A stretch of DNA of 32,000 nt from positions 30,001 to 62,000 of the forward strand of contig NZ_SODD01000008.1 in assembly GCF_004365815.1 (NCBI RefSeq). Direction: 5' to 3'. The notes under the pieces are model-generated. The model did not search any database. It was not told where the DNA came from and saw only the letters and a list, made by a program, of their open reading frames with translations. Origin of the DNA: Breznakia blatticola (lineage in GTDB: Bacteria; Bacillota_I; Bacilli_A; Erysipelotrichales; Erysipelotrichaceae). A program made the position numbers and the translations under genes. Below, piece after piece: positions 23,523-32,000 of this stretch; within the stretch, counting starts at the first letter, position 1; every line of letters begins with the position of its first letter.

Positions 23523-23785
23523 AATACAAAACAAATACGATGAAAAGAAGAGTAGAGTTTCAAAAGTCTTCATAGAGAGTCCTGGTTGGTGAAAAAGGAT
23601 AAGATAAGTCGAACTTGAATATGGTCTTGGAGTAGTACAGTTGAGAGCTTGCTTTAGATTGTACCGTGTGCACCCGTTAACGTGCTAGAGTTTGATAGAA
23701 CTTGAAGAGGTTATTGTAGTGATGCAATAATGAACTAAGGTGGTAACACGATGACATTCGTCCTTATGGGTGAATGTTTTTTTTA
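23523..23785 (+). promoter_or_regulatory. T-box riboswitch leader, probable Met specifier (AUG at 23621-23623)
   Basis: It has AGAGAGTCCTGGTTGGTGAAA (AG bulge/distal loop region) and the specifier-loop-like GAATATGG. The T-box sequence AAGGTGGTAACACG (23737-23750) is present. A terminator with a 10-bp stem (23754-23777) and a T run follows. The Met-transporter operon lies downstream. Confidence 0.8.
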
Positions 23786-23801
23786 TGATTTTGGAGGATA
23801 T

Positions 23802-24836
23802 ATGGAAAAGGTTGTCTTAAAACACATTTCGAAAACGTTTCAAGTAAAAACACATGATGTGCATGCAGTAAAAGATGTATCGCTAAGTGTGGATGAAGGC
23901 GATATCTTTGGTGTCATTGGATTTAGTGGAGCAGGAAAAAGTACACTTATACGTTGTATCAATTTGCTTGAAAGACCAACGAGTGGTGAAGTATGGGTAA
24001 ATGGGAAAAACTTAATTGAATTACCAGCAAAGCAATTGCGTGAAGAACGTAAGAAAATCGGAATGATTTTTCAACATTTCAATCTGATGCGTTCAAGAAC
24101 GGTTGCACAAAATATTGCCTATCCATTAAAAGGTAGTGGAAAAAGTAAAGCTGAAATCGAAGCAAAAGTAAGTGAATTACTTGAACTTGTAGAATTGTCA
24201 GATAAAGCAAAAGCATATCCAAGTCAACTGTCTGGTGGACAAAAACAAAGAGTTGCCATTGCAAGAGCGCTTGCAAATGATCCAAGCATCTTGCTTTGTG
24301 ATGAAGCAACAAGTGCACTGGATCCACAAACAACACAATCGATATTGCAATTACTAAAAGAAGTTAATGAGAAATTAAAACTTACAATTGTTATCATCAC
24401 GCATGAAATGGCGGTTGTAAAACAAATTTGTAATCGTGTTGCGATTATGGAAAATGGAGTCGTGGTTGAACAAGGAAATATTGTGGATATCTTCAGTAAC
24501 CCACAAAATCAGACAACAAAGAATTTCATTAATACGACAACTTCGATTAATGAAATATATGAAATGATTGAAGAAGAAAATCCACTTGTTAAGTTGGAAG
24601 AAAATGAAACGATGCTTCGTTTAACATATGGTTCAAGTAACACCGATGAACCAATCATGTCAGAATTGGTTAACCAATTTAATTTAGAATTTAATATCGT
24701 ATTTGCGAATGTTGAAGTACTAAGTGCAACTCCAATTGGAAATCTCGTTGTAAAACTAAAAGGTGAAACCAAAGATAGACAAGATGCTATTTCATATATC
24801 GAAAAACAAGGTGTGAAAGTTGAGGTGTTAAATTAA
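23802..24836 (+). CDS. metN: methionine ABC transporter ATP-binding protein
   Basis: Walker A GFSGAGKST, signature LSGGQKQR, Walker B ILLCDE, and a C-terminal NIL/ACT-like domain. The start at 23802 has a GGAGG RBS. The track extension from 23751 covers the T-box terminator. Confidence 0.9.
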   Translation: MEKVVLKHISKTFQVKTHDVHAVKDVSLSVDEGDIFGVIGFSGAGKSTLIRCINLLERPTSGEVWVNGKNLIELPAKQLREERKKIGMIFQHFNLMRSRTVAQNIAYPLKGSGKSKAEIEAKVSELLELVELSDKAKAYPSQLSGGQKQRVAIARALANDPSILLCDEATSALDPQTTQSILQLLKEVNEKLKLTIVIITHEMAVVKQICNRVAIMENGVVVEQGNIVDIFSNPQNQTTKNFINTTTSINEIYEMIEEENPLVKLEENETMLRLTYGSSNTDEPIMSELVNQFNLEFNIVFANVEVLSATPIGNLVVKLKGETKDRQDAISYIEKQGVKVEVLN

Positions 24837-25573
24837 TGGGAAGTCAAATTTCACAATTCTTTGAATTGATCATTGGTAAAGTTATTGAATTAATTGATCA
24901 TATACTACCAATGGAATTTATGAATGATCCAATTATGGTGAAAGAATTAGTTAATGCAACTTGGGAAACCATATGGATGTTACTTGCATCTGGTATTGTT
25001 GCATTATTACTTGGACTACTTGTTGGAGTGATTGTGACAGTTACAAACAAAGATGGCTTGTTGGAAAACAAAATTATCTACTTTGTATTTGATAAATTTA
25101 TCAATTTCTTTAGAGCAGTACCATTTGTTATTTTGATTCCATTGATGATGGGATTATCAAGAGTACTTGTAGGTACGGCGACAGGGACCACAGGAATGCT
25201 TGTGACACTTGTTTTTGGAATTATTCCATTCTTTGCTAGACAAGTACAAAGTGCATTGGCAGATGTGGATTCTGGATTGATTGAGGCAAGTATCTCAATG
25301 GGGGATTCCCCCTTACAAATTATTACAAGAGTTTACATTAAAGAAAGTATTCCAGGATTGATACGTTCTATATCGATGACACTTGTTTCTGCATTAGGAC
25401 TTACAGCAATGGCAGGACAAGTTGGTGGTGGAGGATTAGGTGCCTTCGCTATTCGTTATGGATATCAAAGACATGAACTTGATGCAACATGGACAACGGT
25501 AGTCATTATATTAGTTATTGTTGTAATTATTGAATCAAGTGCAAATTATTTCGCAAAAAAATTAACACATTAA
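24836..25573 (+). CDS. metI: methionine ABC transporter permease
   Basis: Polytopic, with an EAA-like loop (ALADVDSGLIEASISMGDSPLQII). It overlaps the metN stop. Confidence 0.88.
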   Translation: MGSQISQFFELIIGKVIELIDHILPMEFMNDPIMVKELVNATWETIWMLLASGIVALLLGLLVGVIVTVTNKDGLLENKIIYFVFDKFINFFRAVPFVILIPLMMGLSRVLVGTATGTTGMLVTLVFGIIPFFARQVQSALADVDSGLIEASISMGDSPLQIITRVYIKESIPGLIRSISMTLVSALGLTAMAGQVGGGGLGAFAIRYGYQRHELDATWTTVVIILVIVVIIESSANYFAKKLTH

Positions 25574-25599
25574 AAGTGTATCTTAAGGAGGATAAGAAG

Positions 25600-26436
25600 A
25601 TGAAAAAAATTATTGCAAGCTTAATTGTTGGTTTATTGGTTTTAACAGGATGTGGAGGATCAGATGATAGTGCTGGCGCTGATGACAAACTAGAAAAGAT
25701 TACAGTTGCAGCAAGTGCGACACCACATGCTGAAATTTTAGAAGAAGTAAAAGAAGATTTAAAAGAAGCAGGATATGAATTAGAAGTAAAAGTATTTGAT
25801 GATTACATTTTACCAAATACAGTTGTAGATGATGGAGAAATTGATGCAAACTTCTTCCAACATGAACCATACTTAATCAGTTTTAATGAAGATAATGGAA
25901 CAGACTTAGTAGCTGTAGCAAATATTCACATTGAACCTTTAGGAATTTATGCAAAGGATAATGAAAAAACAAACTCAGATTTTTCAGTTGCTGATGTAAA
26001 AGAAGGAGCAGTTATTACTATTCCAAATGATCCATCAAATGAATACCGTGCATTACTATTGTTACAAGAAAAAGGCATTATCAAAATCAAAGATAGCAAC
26101 AACTTAAAATCAACAGTTGTAGATATTGTAGAGAATCCAAAAAATGTAGAAATCAAAGAAGTGGAAGCAGCTGGAATTCCAGCAACACTACCAGATGTTG
26201 ATTACGCTGTAATTAATGGAAACTATGCACTTACAAATAAAGTTGAAGATAAACTAATTGTTGCAGAAACAAAAGATTCAAAAGGTGCATTAAAATATGC
26301 AAACATCCTTGCAGTTAAAAAAGGAAACGAAGACAGTGCAAAAACAAAAGCTTTAATTAAAGCGTTACACACAGAAAAAGTTAAAACATTCATTGAAGAA
26401 ACATTTGGTGACTTAGTCATTCCAGCTTTTGATTAA
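25600..26436 (+). CDS. metQ: MetQ/NlpA family methionine-binding lipoprotein
   Basis: MKKIIASLIVGLLVLTGCGG lipobox, FFQHEPYL and NIL..KKGNE motifs. AAGGAGG RBS. Confidence 0.88.
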   Translation: MKKIIASLIVGLLVLTGCGGSDDSAGADDKLEKITVAASATPHAEILEEVKEDLKEAGYELEVKVFDDYILPNTVVDDGEIDANFFQHEPYLISFNEDNGTDLVAVANIHIEPLGIYAKDNEKTNSDFSVADVKEGAVITIPNDPSNEYRALLLLQEKGIIKIKDSNNLKSTVVDIVENPKNVEIKEVEAAGIPATLPDVDYAVINGNYALTNKVEDKLIVAETKDSKGALKYANILAVKKGNEDSAKTKALIKALHTEKVKTFIEETFGDLVIPAFD

Positions 26437-26475: not shown

Positions 26476-26547
26476 ATGTGCATGAATCAATAATAGACAA
26501 GCATTTCTTATTTGTATGGTATAATCAATGCAAGGAGCGTGAGGTCT

Positions 26548-27261
26548 ATGGAGTTTGTGAAACGAAATAAAATTTTTGTTGCACTTGCATCAGTGCTTTT
26601 GCTATTGATTGCAATATTGACTTATGAGTTTGTTCAGCCAAGTAACACCCCAAACACGGTTGTTGCAGGAAATGATAGTGAGAAAACTACTAGTATTTCT
26701 AATTTCTCGTTAAAGTTGACTTCTGCAAACGACTTAACGTTTCATTGGGAAATAAATCAAGGTAGTGAAACAATTTCAAAGATTGAGATTTTTCATGATA
26801 CAACCTTACTAAAAGATGTCACTAGCCAAGCAGTTTACTCAACTCCACTATTTCAAAGTGGAATTAAAACAGGAAATAATGAGTTTACGATAAAAGTAAC
26901 GTTAGGAAATGGGAAAGTACTAGAAAAACGTTTGTATCGTTATATCGATGAGGTATTGAGTTTCAAGGAGGAACATCGACTTGAAGGGACTACTTTATAT
27001 ATGGAAACTACATATTATGTGCAAAAAGATCAAAAACCACGCACACCTATGGTTTCTTATACGCTAAATCAAAAGGGAGTTATTCCATTTGAGTATGTGA
27101 AAAGTGAAACCGTAAAAGTTGAAGGTGATTACCAACAACAAAAAGATTATTATACATTTGATCTGTCTCAAGTGAATTCAGGAACATATGTGTTTTATTT
27201 GAATTTCAATTATAATGAGTTCAATTTAATGTTTAAACGTACAATCAGTGTAGACATATAA
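26548..27261 (+). CDS. hypothetical N-terminally anchored, beta-rich extracytoplasmic protein
   Basis: MEFVKRNKIFVALASVLLLLIAIL is a signal/anchor. AGGAG RBS and a TGgTATAAT promoter (26517-26525) are present. I recognise no family. Confidence 0.7.
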   Translation: MEFVKRNKIFVALASVLLLLIAILTYEFVQPSNTPNTVVAGNDSEKTTSISNFSLKLTSANDLTFHWEINQGSETISKIEIFHDTTLLKDVTSQAVYSTPLFQSGIKTGNNEFTIKVTLGNGKVLEKRLYRYIDEVLSFKEEHRLEGTTLYMETTYYVQKDQKPRTPMVSYTLNQKGVIPFEYVKSETVKVEGDYQQQKDYYTFDLSQVNSGTYVFYLNFNYNEFNLMFKRTISVDI

Positions 27262-27290
27262 AAAGCCTCGCAATCAAGCGAGGCTTTTTA
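27261..27290. terminator. bidirectional terminator between convergent genes
   Basis: AAAAAGCCTCGC-aatcaa-GCGAGGCTTTTT. Confidence 0.85.
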
Positions 27291-27301
27291 TATATCTAAG
27301 A

Positions 27302-29401
27302 CTAATCTGCTACTGAGTATAATAAATCTCCATATGATGGGAATGGCCAGTATTCTTTAGAACAGTTTTGTTCGATTTCATCAACCACTGCACGTAAGTC
27401 TACCATTTTTGCTAATACACTTTCACCATAGTATGTCGCGTTTTTAATGTTATCGCTAATGCCGTTTGCGGCAACAATATCATCTGCTAATAACTCAGTT
27501 TTTGTGTATACTTCATGGATTAACTTGTTTAGTTTTTTAATCATAGCTTCTTCGGTAATGCAATCTAAATCAGCAACAATTGATTTTTTTACAGCGACAG
27601 TTTCACTTAAGTCCTTAATGTATTTTAAGACGGAAGGGATAATGTTTTTCTTTGCCATATTTACCATTGTTTCTGCTTCAATATTGATTGCTTTTGAGTA
27701 TTCTTCAATCAATACATCCATACGAGCTTTCATTTCATTGACAGTATAGATATGATTTGAAGTAAATAGTTCTACATTTTTAGCATCCATATAGTGAGGA
27801 AGTGCTTCATATGTAGTGCGTAAGTTTAATAGTCCACGATTTTGTGCTTCAACTACCCAACTATCATCATATCCATTTCCATTAAAGATGATGCGCTTGT
27901 GTTTTGTGAATGTTTCTTTGATTAAATCATGTAAATCTTTTTGAAGATCACTAGATGCTTCTAAGCGGTCTGCAAATTCTTTAAATGCTTGTGCAACAAT
28001 CGTATTTAACATAATGTTTGGACAAGAAATAGATAGTTGAGAACCAAGCATACGGAACTCGAATTTATTCCCTGTAAAGGCAAAAGGGGAAGTACGGTTA
28101 CGATCCGTATTGTCTTTTTTAAATTCTGGTAGTGAGTCAACACCAATTTCGATCTTTCCAGCACTGTGGTTACATTGAGGCTTATCTTCAATGATACATT
28201 CAATGATGGCTTCTAAATCTGTACCTGTGAAAATTGAGATAATTGCAGGAGGTGCTTCTTGTGCCCCTAAACGGTGATCGTTTCCAGCACTTGCAACTGA
28301 GATACGCAATAAATCTTGGTTTTCATCAACTGCTTTAACTAAAGCTGCAAGAACCAACAAGAATTGTGCATTTTCTTCAGGTGTTGCACCTGGCTCTAAT
28401 AAGTTTTCACCTTGATCAGTAGCCATTGACCAGTTGTTGTGCTTTCCTGAACCATTTATCCCTGCGAATGGTTTCTCGTGAAGTAGACAAACAAGTCCGT
28501 GACGAAGTGCCACTTTCTTCATAATTTCCATTGTTAGTTGGTTTTGGTCTGTAGCAACATTGGTAAGCGTGAAGATTGGTGCAAGCTCATGTTGAGCAGG
28601 AGCAACTTCGTTGTGTTGCGTTTTGGCAAGAACACCAAGTTTCCATAATTCAACGTTTAAGTCATCCATAAAACGAGCAACTTTTGGTTTTAATACACCA
28701 AAGTAATGGTCATCAAGTTCTTGTGTTTTTGGGGGACGAGCTCCATATAAGGTGCGTCCTGTATAAATTAAATCTTTACGTTTATCCCATAGATTTTTAT
28801 CAATAAGGAAGTATTCTTGTTCAGCACCAACGGTTGTATTCACTCGTTTTACATCGGTTTTGCCAAAAAGTTTAAGAATACGTAACGCTTGACGATTCAG
28901 TAATTCTTGTGATTTCAGTAATGGTGTTTTCTTATCTAGTGATTCTCCATTGTATGACATGAACACACTAGGAATACAAAGAATTCCTTCTTTGATAAAC
29001 ACACATGAGGTTGGATCCCAACCTGTGTATCCACGAGCTTCATATGTATCACGTAGTCCACCATTTGGGAAACTTGAAGCATCAGGTTCACCCTTGATTA
29101 ATTCCTTACCAGAAAATTCCATAATGATACTACCATCTCCACTAGGGGTAATGAATGCATCGTGTTTTTCTGCTGTAATTCCTGTCATTGGTTGGAACCA
29201 GTGTGTGTAATGCGTTGCACCATTTTCAATTGCCCAGTCTTTCATGGCAGTTGCAATCGTACTCGCACATTCTGGATCAAGCGGTTTTCCTTCTTCAATC
29301 GTTGCTTTATATTTCTTGTAAATGTCTTTAGGCAGTTTTGCCTTCATACAACGATCGTCGAAAACCTTCGATCCGAAAATCTCAGTAACGTTAGTTCTCA
29401 T
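27302..29401 (-). CDS. glnN: type III glutamine synthetase
   Basis: 699 aa with a GSIII-type N-terminus (FGSKVFDD..MK..LPKD.YK). The catalytic motifs are intact: EQEYF, HNEVAPAQHELA, NGSGKHNNWS. AGGAGGAG RBS. Confidence 0.9.
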   Translation of the reverse strand: MRTNVTEIFGSKVFDDRCMKAKLPKDIYKKYKATIEEGKPLDPECASTIATAMKDWAIENGATHYTHWFQPMTGITAEKHDAFITPSGDGSIIMEFSGKELIKGEPDASSFPNGGLRDTYEARGYTGWDPTSCVFIKEGILCIPSVFMSYNGESLDKKTPLLKSQELLNRQALRILKLFGKTDVKRVNTTVGAEQEYFLIDKNLWDKRKDLIYTGRTLYGARPPKTQELDDHYFGVLKPKVARFMDDLNVELWKLGVLAKTQHNEVAPAQHELAPIFTLTNVATDQNQLTMEIMKKVALRHGLVCLLHEKPFAGINGSGKHNNWSMATDQGENLLEPGATPEENAQFLLVLAALVKAVDENQDLLRISVASAGNDHRLGAQEAPPAIISIFTGTDLEAIIECIIEDKPQCNHSAGKIEIGVDSLPEFKKDNTDRNRTSPFAFTGNKFEFRMLGSQLSISCPNIMLNTIVAQAFKEFADRLEASSDLQKDLHDLIKETFTKHKRIIFNGNGYDDSWVVEAQNRGLLNLRTTYEALPHYMDAKNVELFTSNHIYTVNEMKARMDVLIEEYSKAINIEAETMVNMAKKNIIPSVLKYIKDLSETVAVKKSIVADLDCITEEAMIKKLNKLIHEVYTKTELLADDIVAANGISDNIKNATYYGESVLAKMVDLRAVVDEIEQNCSKEYWPFPSYGDLLYSVAD

Positions 29402-29414
29402 AGTTCTCCTCCTG

Positions 29415-29460
29415 AATAAACAAAAAGGGTGCCGTAGACAAAAATATATCTACAGCACCC
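29415..29460 (-). terminator. leader (attenuator) terminator directly upstream of the glnN RBS
   Basis: On the - strand, GGGTGCTGTAGA-tatatttttg-TCTACGGCACCC (12 bp, one G-U pair) is followed by TTTTTGTTTATT. AGGAGGAG and the ATG come straight after. No promoter can fit between the hairpin and the RBS. Confidence 0.75.
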
Positions 29461-29467
29461 TTGCTGT
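29452..29467 (-). promoter_or_regulatory. candidate antiterminator hairpin ACAGC-AAGGGT-GCTGT overlapping the terminator 5' arm
   Basis: A 5-bp stem with a hexaloop that has A at position 1 and G at position 4, the ANTAR-target loop signature. It sequesters 9 of the 12 nt of the terminator 5' arm. I found only one such hairpin, not the canonical tandem pair. Confidence 0.35.
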
Positions 29468-29474
29468 TACCATG

Positions 29475-29503
29475 AGTTTAATCAATAATTACGTATAAGT
29501 CAA
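29475..29503 (-). promoter_or_regulatory. candidate glnN promoter (TTGACT-17-TAAACT)
   Basis: Read on the - strand. The predicted start is near 29468, right at the hexaloop hairpin. Confidence 0.45.
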
Positions 29504-29505
29504 GG

Positions 29506-29598
29506 TTAATTTGAATCTTTTTTACCAATATCACTTACTTTGATTGCAATGTAAAGTAACAACATCAGTTGAATAACATCATAGATAAATTTGTACAT
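29506..29598 (-). CDS. candidate 30-aa hydrophobic peptide MYKFIYDVIQLMLLLYIAIKVSDIGKKDSN
   Basis: AAAGGAG RBS lies 7 nt upstream of the ATG. It has a single TM-like core and a charged C-terminus. A possible TTAACT-17-TACACT promoter lies upstream. It is too short for the ORF track. Confidence 0.3.
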   Translation of the reverse strand: MYKFIYDVIQLMLLLYIAIKVSDIGKKDSN

Positions 29599-29803
29599 GA
29601 TAAGCTCCTTTCATTTACTCATATGATTGTGTTTCTAATACAAGTGTAGCACATACATATAAAAGAGTTAACCCTACAGGATTCCTTGATAGAAGAGCTA
29701 GATGTAAAGTATATGTAAATTACAAACAATTTTTAGTAATCTATTTTGCATAATGTAAAAAGTGTGATATGAATAGAAAGAGTTACAAGTATGAAATCTT
29801 TTA

Positions 29804-29832
29804 TTGACAGGAATTTAGTTGTAAACTATAAT
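29804..29832 (+). promoter_or_regulatory. promoter of the GS-like/ANTAR operon (TTGACA-17-TATAAT)
   Basis: Perfect consensus hexamers and spacing. The leader is short (~26 nt) with no attenuator. Confidence 0.75.
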
Positions 29833-29864
29833 CATAAAATAGATTTTGAAGAAGGAGCGTGACT

Positions 29865-31133
29865 ATGGAGCTACAAGATATTTTGCAATACATTCAACAG
29901 CATCATGTGAAATTTGTGCGACTCGCTTTTTGCGACATTTTTGGAACCCTCAAAAATCTCTCAATTAATGCAGAAGACTTCGAAGATGCAACAACATTTG
30001 GAGTTAACTTGGATGCTTCTATAGTTAACGGTTTTATGAACTTCAAAAAAACGGATTTACTCTTGTTTCCTGATTTGGAAACCATGACAGTACTGCCTTG
30101 GCGCAGCAATCATGAGAAAGTTGTTCGTTTTTTTTGTGATATTCGTCATGTGGATCACCGTCCATTTGAAGGTGATGGTCGTTATATTTTAAAGCAAGCG
30201 ATGGAAGCTTGCGAAGCTTATGGATATACACCACGAATTGGAATTGAAAGTGAGTTTTATGTTTTTAAAAATGATGAAGATGGAAAACCGACAAATCTTC
30301 CAGTCGATGATGCATCGTATTTAGATGTAACACCACTTGATAAGTGTGAAAATATTCGTCGTGATGTATGTTTGGCTCTTGGTGAAATGGGGGTAAAAAC
30401 GACTCTTTCCTACCATGAAAAAGGTCCGGGACAAAATGTTATTATGTTTCAAAAAGACCATGCACTACCGAGTGCTGACAATTTTATCACTTTTAAAAAT
30501 GCGGTAAAAAGCATTGCGTTGGTAAATGATTTGTATGCAAGTTTTATGCCACGTCCAATGGCAAATGAGGCTGGTAGTGGACTTCGTATTAAAGTGATTT
30601 TAAGTAAAAATGATCGGAATATTTTTGATGATGAATTTGAAGTTAATATTCAAGAACAAAGAAGTTTCATCGCTGGAATATTAAATCGAATTGATGATAT
30701 GAGTGCATTTTTAAATCCAATACATAATTCATATGAACGTTTAGGACGTGAAAAAGCACCAAAATACATAACGTGGTCAAAAGAAAATGAAAGTGAATTA
30801 ATTCGTGTTAGTGAGAAAAATGATGAGTATTCATTTATTACACTACGTTCACCTGATGCAGCATGCAATCCATATATTAGCTTTGCTTTATTGTTGTTTG
30901 CTGGAGTTGAAGGAATGAAAAATCATGAAGAACTTCATGAAAATACAAAAAGTCCAAGAATGCTACCAGATAGCTTGAAAGAAGCAATTAAAAAACTGGA
31001 GACATCAACGTTTATAAAAACGTATTTAAATGAGAAAACACTTGAGACATTTATTCGTGCCAAAAAAGAAGAAGTAGAACAAATTGATAAAGAAGCTTCT
31101 TTTGCCTTGGATCCATACTTCCGCCTAATTTAG
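29865..31133 (+). CDS. type I glutamine synthetase-like protein with degenerate catalytic motifs (probable pseudoenzyme)
   Basis: It has a clear GSI fold (VRLAFCDIFGTLKN, PFEGD, IESEFYVF, SFMPRP, NSYERL, RSPDAACNPY). Several motifs differ from the consensus. HHEVAPGQHE reads YHEKGPGQNV. GSGMH reads GSGLR. NRS.LIRIP reads NESELIRVS. VEVR reads ITLR. I prefer the ATG at 29865 (GGAG 7 nt upstream) over the GTG at 29859. Confidence 0.8.
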   Translation: MELQDILQYIQQHHVKFVRLAFCDIFGTLKNLSINAEDFEDATTFGVNLDASIVNGFMNFKKTDLLLFPDLETMTVLPWRSNHEKVVRFFCDIRHVDHRPFEGDGRYILKQAMEACEAYGYTPRIGIESEFYVFKNDEDGKPTNLPVDDASYLDVTPLDKCENIRRDVCLALGEMGVKTTLSYHEKGPGQNVIMFQKDHALPSADNFITFKNAVKSIALVNDLYASFMPRPMANEAGSGLRIKVILSKNDRNIFDDEFEVNIQEQRSFIAGILNRIDDMSAFLNPIHNSYERLGREKAPKYITWSKENESELIRVSEKNDEYSFITLRSPDAACNPYISFALLLFAGVEGMKNHEELHENTKSPRMLPDSLKEAIKKLETSTFIKTYLNEKTLETFIRAKKEEVEQIDKEASFALDPYFRLI

Positions 31134-31149
31134 TAGGAGTGGATACAGT

Positions 31150-31716
31150 ATGCCAAGTTGTTTAATTGTATCGAGTTTGGATAAAAGTTTAGATGCACTG
31201 ACTAAACTTTTATCAAGTATCGATTTAAAGAAAATAGAATGTGTAAAAAGTGCAACAGAAGCAAGACAGGTTCTGGCAAAACAAGCATTTGATATGGTGT
31301 TGATTAATGCTCCATTATCAGATGAATTCGGACATGAATTGACATTACAAATTACCGAAAACTCTACAAGTGGTGTCCTTTTTCTGGTGAAAAATGAACT
31401 GGTTGATGAACTGAGTAGCAAACTAACAAGACATGGCGTGATGGTTATTGGAAAACCGTTGAATCGTCATATGTTTACACAAGCGGTTCGTATGGGATTA
31501 TCCACACATCAACGCTTGTCACAAGCAGAAAAAGAAAATTTGCGATTACATGCCAAAGTGGAAAATTTAGAATTGATCAGTCGTGCAAAATACACACTGA
31601 TGGAGTATTTAAATATGGGAGAAGCGCAAGCACATCGTTATATAGAAAAGAAAGCGATGGATGCTAGAATTTCCAAAGAAGAAGTTGCGAAAGATATATT
31701 AAAAACATATGGTTAG
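31150..31716 (+). CDS. ANTAR-domain RNA-binding antiterminator with pseudo-receiver N-terminal domain
   Basis: The C-terminal ANTAR helices are [43 protein letters not shown]. The N-terminal REC-like fold has LIVSSLD where the acidic pair is expected. It has MVLINAP where the phospho-acceptor Asp is expected (Asn instead). The conserved Lys (GKP) is retained. Confidence 0.85.
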
Positions 31717-31727
31717 AAGGAGTTAAG

Positions 31728-32000
31728 ATGAGAAAATACATATTTGTTACCGGTGGAGTAGTAAGTGGATTAGGTAAAGGGATAACCGCAGCAAGTTTAG
31801 GACGTATGTTGAAAGAACGTGGGTTGAAAGTCATCGCACAAAAGATGGATCCATATATCAATGTGGATTGTGGAACCATGTCACCATACCAACATGGGGA
31901 AGTGTTTGTTACCGATGATGGTGCTGAAACCGATTTGGATTTAGGACACTATGAACGTTTTATCGATGAAGATCTGAATCGATTTTCGAATCTAACAAGT
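31728..32000 (+). CDS. pyrG: CTP synthase, 3' end cut by window edge
   Basis: It is not in the ORF track because no stop lies in the window. Translation gives [67 protein letters not shown], the canonical PyrG N-terminus. AAGGAG RBS, 11 nt after the ANTAR stop. Confidence 0.9.

Follow-up and report, generated by a model that had tools for sequence, protein, structure and literature searches.

A glutamine synthetase-derived pseudoenzyme as candidate sensor for probable ANTAR-type antitermination of glnN in Breznakia blatticola

NitR, an ANTAR regulator encoded directly downstream of glnA, controls the genes of glutamine synthetase (GS) and glutamate synthase (GOGAT) in Clostridium saccharobutylicum NCP262 (Stutz, 2007, via an excerpt of PMC6316151), and the same excerpt calls signal sensing by NitR "not fully understood". 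A type I GS gene also lies next to an ANTAR gene in C. thermocellum (Clo1313_2030/2031; excerpt of PMC4676874), and predictions for Desulfotomaculum and other Firmicutes place ANTAR leaders ahead of nitrogen genes (PMC3369931). The RNA targets of ANTAR proteins are defined by a hairpin whose hexaloop has A in first and G in fourth place (A1/G4) and which overlaps the 5' arm of a terminator (Ramesh et al., PMC3369931); the published target consists of two such hairpins, the second of which makes this overlap (PMC3369931). Characterized ANTAR proteins with a pseudo-receiver are kept in check by a co-expressed partner, AmiC for AmiR and NasS for NasT (excerpts of PMC3369931 and PMC3795266). Here, we analyze a window of 32,000 nucleotides (nt) of Breznakia blatticola (Erysipelotrichaceae; contig NZ_SODD01000008.1; positions are window-relative), in which the type III GS gene glnN, preceded by an attenuator, diverges from an operon for a GS-like pseudoenzyme (pseudo-GS) and a NitR/AmiR-like ANTAR protein. 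The question addressed is what informs ANTAR regulators of the NitR type about nitrogen status in anaerobic Firmicutes, among them major clostridia of gut, rumen, and industry; the pseudo-GS is a candidate for this input. A preliminary description of the window, made from its letters, took this gene pair to be without described precedent, which the known clostridial glnA-nitR pair contradicts; our literature search, itself of incomplete coverage, retrieved no GS or GS-like protein described as the sensing partner of an ANTAR regulator.

The proposed regulated target, glnN (27302..29401, minus strand), encodes a protein of 699 amino acids (aa) with the Pfam domains GSIII_N (8.7e-80), Gln-synt_C, and Gln-synt_C-ter. 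Over its full length it can be aligned with the type III GS of Bacteroides fragilis (3O6X, E = 1e-188), and all its active-site motifs (EQEYF, HNEVAPAQHE, NGSGKHNN, and FEFR) match that structure; by domains and motifs it is an intact type III GS, as described earlier, and the sole working GS seen in the window. On the same strand, a promoter match, TTGACT-17-TAAACT, occupies 29475..29503, and the ribosome-binding site (RBS) AGGAGGAG, read from the sequence, lies at 29406..29413, 4 nt before the ATG. Terminator scanning and RNA folding place an intrinsic terminator between the two, at 29415..29462, with the stem at 29462..29425 followed by the U-rich tail UUUGUUUAUU. The preliminary description had put a terminator with a 12-bp stem between the glnN promoter and the RBS; its presence there holds, while the stem actually comprises 16 pairs. 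The folding energy is -30.9 kcal/mol (z = -6.25), and none of 200 shuffled sequences was equally stable. Overlapping this terminator is the candidate antiterminator hairpin ACAGC-AAGGGU-GCUGU (29452..29467, minus strand), which combines a 5-bp stem with an A1/G4 hexaloop, and whose loop and 3' arm double as the 5' arm of the terminator. The hairpin alone folds at -7.1 kcal/mol, hence the terminator should prevail unless the hairpin is stabilized. Just 7 nt separate the -10 box from the hairpin, so that the transcript would begin essentially with the hairpin. A single occurrence of the leader motif CAGCAANGGYGCTG was found in the 32-kb window, where chance would give 0.03.

To place the leader in its family, we used a scan by ANTAR alignment with one genome per species, which confirmed at least 583 relatives; the best 80 loci were kept (these and further relatives bear L numbers below), all but one of which are labelled Clostridia or Bacillota, or are unclassified, and C. 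saccharobutylicum is not among them. The same design, i.e., a strong sigma-70-type promoter, a hairpin, and a terminator built on the loop and 3' arm of that hairpin, is seen at every glnN examined: in the window, at 18 of the 80 loci, and in Erysipelotrichaceae relatives. Among the latter, the leader terminator is nearly identical in L087 and kept in L081-L086, and the arrangement TTGACA-17-TAAACT/TAAAAT recurs in L081, L083, and L085. The reading of the glnN leader as an attenuator, already put forward in the preliminary description, thus holds, together with the signature of an ANTAR target, before glnN in every related locus examined.

Before glnN, the hairpin usually reads (A)CAGC-AA(N)GG(Y)-GCUG(U). 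Elsewhere the stem takes another form, (AU)GAAC-AAAGGC-GUUC(AU), found ahead of several further genes: the GS-like/ANTAR operon, the GATase_2 gene heading the GOGAT cluster, asnA, amtB-PII fusions, asnB, gdh, and, at two loci, pyrG. The hairpin-terminator stands before glnN in 29 cases, and the element always co-occurs with this ANTAR family. Sixty distinct elements yield the consensus C-AA(N)GG(Y)-G, with an invariant C-G pair closing the loop and invariant A1, A2, G4, and G5 within it. Paired cells make up 85.6% in these elements and 65% in shuffles, and the covariation score of the hairpin, 0.58, compares with 0.23 in shuffles (reached by 0/500) and 0.05-0.14 in slid controls. Selection of the elements required the three inner pairs only; the fourth and fifth pairs, left free, covary strongly. 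In 61 of the 67 elements with a good promoter, the distance from the end of the -10 box to the hairpin is 4-14 nt. No upstream P1 hairpin was detected, by eye or by script, in the leaders examined; a promoter so close to the hairpin leaves no room for one.

Several of these leaders differ in detail. The glnN leader of a Ruminococcaceae locus (L062:6200-6400, minus strand) has tandem hexaloop hairpins, CGGC-AAUGAC-GUCG and GCGGC-AACGGC-GUCGC; by eye, a terminator-like hairpin follows each, which would make a double attenuator, whereas the script gave no terminator after the second. At L022:1550 and L052:8587 (plus strand), pyrG downstream of the ANTAR gene has its own GAAC-AA(A/G)GGC-GUUC hairpin-terminator, and CTP synthase is therefore a member of the regulon there; pyrG of the window is instead appended to the unattenuated operon described below.

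This divergent operon starts from a promoter, TTGACA-17-TATAAT (29804..29832, plus strand), that matches the consensus at 12 of 12 positions, and its leader of about 30 nt holds neither a hairpin nor a terminator, in agreement with the preliminary description; promoter and leader are almost identical in L087. Its first gene (29865..31133, plus strand) encodes the pseudo-GS, a GSI-alpha-like protein of 422 aa and the proposed signal sensor. After a gap of 16 nt follows the gene of the ANTAR protein (31150..31716, plus strand; 188 aa), and 11 nt after its stop codon begins pyrG, the gene of the glutamine-using CTP synthase (31728..32000, plus strand; Pfam/NCBIfam), with only its 5' part inside the window. 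The terminator scan found no plus-strand terminator from the promoter of this operon to the window end. Because the gap is only 11 nt and holds no terminator, pyrG is probably co-transcribed with the GS-like and ANTAR genes, as had been supposed.

The ANTAR domain (PF03861) of the regulator scores 51.6 bits against a cut-off of 27.3, and its Response_reg domain 31.0 bits against a cut-off of 30.2. The AlphaFold2 (AF2) model (predicted local distance difference test, pLDDT, 94) comprises a (beta-alpha)5 domain, a long helix at residues 106-154, and a three-helix ANTAR domain; top Foldseek matches are the RNA-bound EutV 6WW6 (template modelling (TM) score 0.80), EutV, Rv1626, and AmiR (TM score 0.66). 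At the CheY positions D12, D13, D57, T87, and K109 the protein reads S, S, N, V, and K. The loss of the phospho-acceptor Asp, remarked on in the preliminary description, is shared by the 120 homologues compared, which reach down to 34% identity and every one of which has Asn there. As read from these columns, the domain is a conserved pseudo-receiver that is not phosphorylatable, which argues against control by phosphorylation and for control by a protein partner or a ligand.

Taken together, the A1/G4 hexaloop with its terminator overlap, the covariation of the hairpin, the constant co-occurrence of the element with this ANTAR family, the conservation in the clade, and the EutV-like model make it very probable that the ANTAR protein binds the glnN hairpin and blocks the terminator. 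Given a published target of two hairpins, it is puzzling how an ANTAR dimer would act on a lone hairpin at the 5' terminus.

The protein encoded upstream of the regulator is homologous to type I GS over both the beta-grasp and the catalytic domain by its Pfam matches (Gln-synt_N, 1.1e-22; Gln-synt_C, 2.3e-76), and its nearest solved relatives are GSI-alpha structures (E of about 1e-88 over residues 4-406). It scores 309.1 bits against TIGR00653, below the equivalog cut-off of 429.15; the database entry that is 100% identical to it bears the name "L-glutamine synthetase". The preliminary description held that its metal-ligand motifs looked lost, and the column reading against Methanosarcina mazei GS agrees: three of the six metal ligands are gone (E220 to V, H269 to R, and E357 to T), as are the flap residue E327 (K), R339 (E), and N264 (A). 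Retained are D50, E129, E131, E212, R321, R344, and R359. This pattern of losses is common to a clade of homologues (P0001-P0007, P0009, and P0010) that reaches down to 51% identity, in which the triad of divergent glnN, pseudo-GS, and ANTAR genes is conserved, usually with pyrG next. The ratio of nonsynonymous to synonymous substitution rates (dN/dS) between the window and L087, an 86%-identical relative, is 0.065 for the pseudo-GS, 0.052 for the ANTAR protein, and 0.035 for glnN. Judged by its catalytic columns, the GS-like protein is thus a pseudoenzyme under purifying selection and, given the dN/dS of 0.065, no decaying remnant.

Reading the same columns in the 73 ANTAR-linked GS shows that all six metal ligands are kept in only about 60% of them. 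Elsewhere the losses take other forms (E129K + E212K + H269T/S/N; D50N + E129R + E212K + H269K; E131Q + E212L; E129A; E129S + E357V/I), and parsimony on a neighbour-joining tree of the ANTAR-linked GS counts at least seven independent losses of catalytic ligands. Asn264 is almost never present, even where the metal ligands are intact, and the flap Glu occurs in no more than 26 of the 73, while R321 is kept in 73/73 and R359 in 72/73. Since the ligands were lost repeatedly, independently, and in differing patterns, catalysis is not what this family conserves. That the protein is still an enzyme, e.g., a gamma-glutamyl-polyamine or gamma-glutamyl-amine synthetase linked to the ANTAR gene through metabolism, is accordingly hard to credit. 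It matches gamma-glutamylputrescine synthetase of NCBIfam weakly (207 bits, cut-off 650), as it does other GS-like ligases, and GS-like paralogues with other substrates are known (GSI-gamma, PMC10799026); however, the known ligases of the GS family keep the two-metal site, which is broken here by E220V, H269R, and E357T along with the loss of R339 and the flap Glu, and the other ANTAR-linked lineages lose different ligands (E129K/E212K, E131Q/E212L), which no shared alternative chemistry would explain.

One member close to a studied organism, from Acetivibrio sp. (L070), the genus of C. thermocellum, has an ANTAR-adjacent type I GS with all six metal ligands and Arg in place of the flap Glu, which invites a second look at the level of activity of the well-studied C. 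thermocellum type I GS.

2-Oxoglutarate (2-OG) is the classical signal of nitrogen limitation. It is bound in archaeal GS by an inter-subunit pocket, formed in M. mazei GlnA1 by F24, R26, R87, R172', R173', and S189' (PMC11957540) and in Methanothermococcus thermolithotrophicus GS by F18', R20', R88', R174, R175, and S191 (PMC10799026). In M. mazei GS it drives dodecamer assembly (PMC11957540), while the GS of Bacillus subtilis is unable to accommodate it (Muller et al., PMC10799026). The pocket is complete in the pseudo-GS of the window (F, R, R, R, R, S, with Ser at the position of Glu36), in 63 of the 73 ANTAR-linked GS (68/73 counting R26K), in 107 of 120 database homologues (120/120 counting R26K), and in 28 of the 33 members with lost catalytic ligands. 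B. subtilis GS, whose sequence as used here was checked against PDB 4S0R, reads Y, T, and E at the discriminating positions, with Y20, E36, and no Arg at that of R87.

The preliminary description would have the protein bind glutamine, glutamate, or ATP and release or sequester the ANTAR protein, with Bacillus GS as a precedent. Spelled out, the pseudo-GS would sense glutamine (or glutamate/ATP) at the remnant of its active site, in the manner of the feedback-inhibited B. subtilis GS, and sequester the ANTAR protein when glutamine is high. Residues that hold the amino-acid moiety are indeed kept (E131, R321, R359, G265, and D50), B. subtilis GS-TnrA/GlnR provides a precedent (excerpts of PMC9249791 and PMC6316151), and the regulatory logic would work equally well with a glutamine signal. 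The feedback lock by glutamine, however, needs an Arg (B. subtilis R62 and M. mazei R66; PMC10799026, PMC11957540), which is replaced by Asn here and missing from nearly all family members, and the flap Glu that contacts glutamine is Lys here and, as said, kept in a minority of the family only. With three metal ligands and the ATP-contacting R339 and H271 lost, the nucleotide/metal site is unlikely to be functional; moreover, the active-site residues differ between lineages, in contrast to those of the 2-OG pocket. Sensing of glutamine as in Bacillus is therefore improbable. Because the 2-OG pocket is retained, the feedback Arg is absent, and the metal/nucleotide site is damaged, 2-OG appears the more likely ligand of the two, and we tentatively propose it as the ligand of the pseudo-GS, short of calling it probable. 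Ligand-driven assembly as in M. mazei would be a plausible way to change what the pseudo-GS binds.

Linkage of the GS-like protein to the regulator is seen at the level of gene order and of gene fusion. Surveyed for co-occurrence of the two genes and of a glnN leader terminator, as the preliminary description had suggested, the loci show, in 73 of the 77 cases with enough upstream sequence, a GS-like gene as the immediate upstream neighbour of the ANTAR gene; pyrG follows the ANTAR gene directly in about a dozen related loci, and triad and leader are conserved throughout the Erysipelotrichaceae clade. In uncultured Oscillospiraceae, the two are joined: a protein of 301 aa (L075) consists of the N-terminal beta-grasp domain of GS (about 105 aa), a pseudo-receiver, and an ANTAR domain. 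Such fusions form four clusters of about 300 aa (P0241, P0242, P0243, and P0245; 68-100% identity), each with precomputed Pfam matches to both Gln-synt_N and ANTAR and each found on many contigs; the genes examined lie at L075:7665-8570 (plus strand), L089:9001-9903, and L090:4045-4947. The fusion gene is the first of a carA-carB-pyrG operon, in which all three downstream genes are glutamine-consuming. In a dN/dS comparison of the GS_N part, synonymous sites were saturated. A recurrent and diverged fusion is classical evidence for a functional link, and suggests that the N-domain is the relevant part of GS.

The leaders of the fusion operons (L089:8700-8830 and L075:7380-7500) contain GUUAAGCAAAGGCAAGG (GUUAAGCAAAGACACGG in L075), a regulon-like loop without the usual complementary 3' arm, followed by the GC-rich terminator GGGGGAGC...GCUUCCCCUUUUUU. 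Two further GS-ANTAR "fusions" were discarded, one of 610 aa in L007, an artefact of an open reading frame (ORF) extended across a stop codon, and P0008 (661 aa), which is actually an internally duplicated ordinary GS.

The conserved, unattenuated consensus promoter of the Breznakia clade suggests a constitutively present protein, as would suit a sensor. A general rule by which dead GS are encoded in unattenuated and live GS in attenuated operons was considered and dropped, as it is not strict: the Romboutsia locus L001 has a degenerate GS behind an attenuated leader. The pseudo-receiver, the adjacency in 73 of 77 loci, the repeated catalytic loss, the fusions, and the unattenuated promoter make the pseudo-GS the best candidate sensor, and control of the ANTAR protein by contact with it, in a putative complex, is plausible and somewhat more likely than not.

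The anatomy of the locus, its conservation and synteny, the covariation of the hairpin, the state of pseudoenzyme and pseudo-receiver, and the fusions are observed. We lean, by a modest degree of belief, towards a model that joins these elements, in which we infer the protein contact, the ligand, the RNA binding, and the sign alike. The locus would be a switch for nitrogen status acting at transcription elongation. A constitutive operon would supply the GS-derived pseudoenzyme and a pseudo-receiver ANTAR antiterminator of the NitR kind, and the glnN transcript would begin a few bases before the hexaloop hairpin. Left unstabilized, the hairpin would give up its loop and 3' arm to the terminator of about -31 kcal/mol, and transcription would stop before the RBS; bound by the ANTAR protein, it would block the terminator, and glnN would be transcribed. 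As the ANTAR protein is not phosphorylatable, its activity would have to be set by a partner, for which the co-expressed pseudo-GS is the best candidate. The latter would sense 2-OG, high under nitrogen limitation, and a change in its conformation or oligomeric state would release or activate the ANTAR protein. In a version resembling AmiC/AmiR, the apo or nitrogen-replete pseudo-GS would sequester the regulator, the sign of regulation being presumed.

Several observations weigh against this model. The characterized ANTAR targets have two hairpins and the present ones a single hairpin. Of the pocket residues, R172, R173, and S189 are conserved in B. subtilis GS as well, which leaves F24, R87, and the missing Glu36 to discriminate; the pocket lies on the subunit interface, and its residues could be kept for assembly alone; and in the fusion proteins F24 is replaced by E or A. 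The AF2 model of the fusion protein (pLDDT 70, predicted TM score 0.48) has a disordered linker and no confident packing between the domains. A functional hint in favour of the model, that deletion of the ANTAR-adjacent type I GS of C. thermocellum reportedly "deregulates nitrogen metabolism" (Rydzak, 2017, cited in PMC9888227), is confounded by the loss of glutamine synthesis. In four cases (L003, L058, the first ANTAR copy of L042, and the L075 fusion), no full-length GS-like gene stands next to the ANTAR gene, and adjacency could reflect GS as a regulated target, since most clostridial GS-like/ANTAR operons, or the GOGAT operons containing them, carry the same hairpin-terminator.

The last two points also favour the explanation that the ANTAR protein controls the glnN attenuator and the pseudo-GS is not its sensor. 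The gate would then be a PII protein, a metabolite acting on the pseudo-receiver, or the abundance of the ANTAR protein; the adjacency would be historical, inherited from a co-regulated target glnA, and the Breznakia copy would have another non-catalytic role or serve as an assembly partner. PII proteins are present in these organisms, as shown by the amtB-PII fusions in the regulon, and the interaction of pseudo-GS and ANTAR protein is a putative one. We nevertheless consider this explanation unlikely, as it leaves unexplained the strong purifying selection on a dead GS beside a regulator, the retention of the gene through at least seven decays of the active site, and the fusion of the GS N-domain to the regulator in a diverged clade; the unattenuated consensus promoter before the pair in the Breznakia clade, too, suits a sensor and not a target.

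Extended to the family, the sensor model would see in the GS-derived proteins of Clostridia and Erysipelotrichia a family of 2-OG receptors, some still enzymes and many dead, that gate ANTAR proteins through contact with the GS N-domain and thereby a single-hairpin nitrogen regulon (glnN, GOGAT, amtB-PII, asnA/B, gdh, and pyrG). We regard this wider reading as possible but somewhat doubtful. If true, the system would be an RNA-level counterpart of Bacillus GS-TnrA/GlnR that reads 2-OG and not glutamine, and a natural conversion of an enzyme into a receptor whose intermediate stages are alive in related lineages; Breznakia would represent the end state, with sensing and catalysis fully split between two GS genes. 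Should the GS-like protein prove to be the sensor, it would be the missing input component of a regulon in at least several hundred genomes, in keeping with the 583 or more relatives, would carry the 2-OG pocket of archaeal GS over into bacterial signalling, and would show an ANTAR protein at work on one 5'-terminal hairpin. It would also help to reinterpret the C. thermocellum type I GS deletion, a matter of interest for strain engineering. The Breznakia locus lends itself well to tests, because sensing and catalysis would reside on separate genes and mutants of the sensor would thus not be confounded by loss of glutamine synthesis.

As for the surroundings of the locus, a bidirectional intrinsic terminator read from the sequence (AAAAAGCCUCGC-loop-GCGAGGCUUUUU, 27260..27289, both strands) ends both glnN and a convergent ORF of 249 aa (26512-27261, plus strand). 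The latter belongs to a class of proteins of about 240 aa that is convergent with glnN throughout the Erysipelotrichaceae clade (counterparts at L081:2320-3036, L085:2902-3615, and L087:1844-2557), with an N-terminal hydrophobic segment and no recorded Pfam match. An Rfam scan of 27000-32000 at E<=10 gave chance sub-threshold matches only and no curated family over the glnN leader; the top matches (Leu_leader, STnc230, and others) all fall on the terminator 27260-27289 and are chance resemblances to models of terminator-containing leaders and small RNAs. Further upstream, at 23751-26436 (plus strand), lies a three-gene ABC transporter. Synteny with L081 and L087 marks its genes as those of an ATPase with a NIL domain, a BPD_transp_1 permease, and a Lipoprotein_9 binding protein; the set resembles methionine-uptake systems and keeps its place ahead of the locus in the Breznakia relatives. 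Between the divergent genes, a hydrophobic ORF of 30 aa, MYKFIYDVIQLMLLLYIAIKVSDIGKKDSN (29506-29598, minus strand), has a good RBS and was considered as a leader peptide; it was rejected because it lies upstream of the glnN promoter, in a stretch of about 150 nt that is absent from the close relative L087 and is probably a strain-specific insertion outside the circuit. The same region of Breznakia sp. PF5-3 holds a gene of a GNAT acetyltransferase (L081:5314-5838, minus strand) upstream of the glnN promoter and attenuator, which still stand directly before glnN.

Compared with the known systems, the locus is of one kind with glnA-nitR, as judged from the published description of gene order and role: there, too, an ANTAR gene lies downstream of a type I GS (the locus type seen in 73 of 77 cases here), its product is thought to antiterminate the GS/GOGAT genes under nitrogen limitation, and GS/GOGAT genes are preceded by attenuators in related loci. 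The difference is that glnA there is treated as both an active enzyme and a regulated target, whereas the GS here is dead and read from an unattenuated promoter, and the catalytic GS is a separate enzyme of type III. With AmiC-AmiR of Pseudomonas aeruginosa and NasS-NasT of Paracoccus denitrificans, the locus shares a non-phosphorylated pseudo-receiver ANTAR protein, which in those pairs, as given in the excerpted sources, is released by its partner on a signal; however, AmiC and NasS have the fold of periplasmic binding proteins and bind amides or nitrate, whereas the putative partner here has the GS fold, which is normally dodecameric. EutV-EutW of Enterococcus faecalis is alike in the order of receiver, coiled coil, and ANTAR domain and in an A1/G4 hexaloop hairpin that shares its 3' side with the terminator as the 5' arm of the latter, but EutV is phosphorylated by a kinase and needs the hairpins P1 and P2 with a linker of 5-12 nt, in contrast to a pseudo-receiver and a P2-like hairpin only, near the transcription start.

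B. subtilis GS-TnrA/GlnR resembles the proposed circuit in that a GS reports nitrogen status by protein contact and that regulator and GS share one operon (PMC6316151, PMC10799026). That GS, however, is active, senses glutamine via R62 and the flap Glu (Glu304), and acts on DNA-binding proteins of the MerR type, whereas in Breznakia a dead GS without R62 would act through an RNA-binding antiterminator. Finally, the archaeal GSI-alpha enzymes (M. mazei GlnA1 and M. thermolithotrophicus GS) are the closest solved relatives and share the residues of the inter-subunit 2-OG pocket; in them 2-OG switches on catalysis or the assembly of the active dodecamer, whereas the putative pocket here would serve signalling only. 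Set against all these systems, the locus differs in a GS-fold pseudoenzyme as candidate sensor, a proposed 2-OG signal, a single 5'-terminal hairpin as target, and the presumed split of sensing and catalysis between a dead GSI and a live GSIII.

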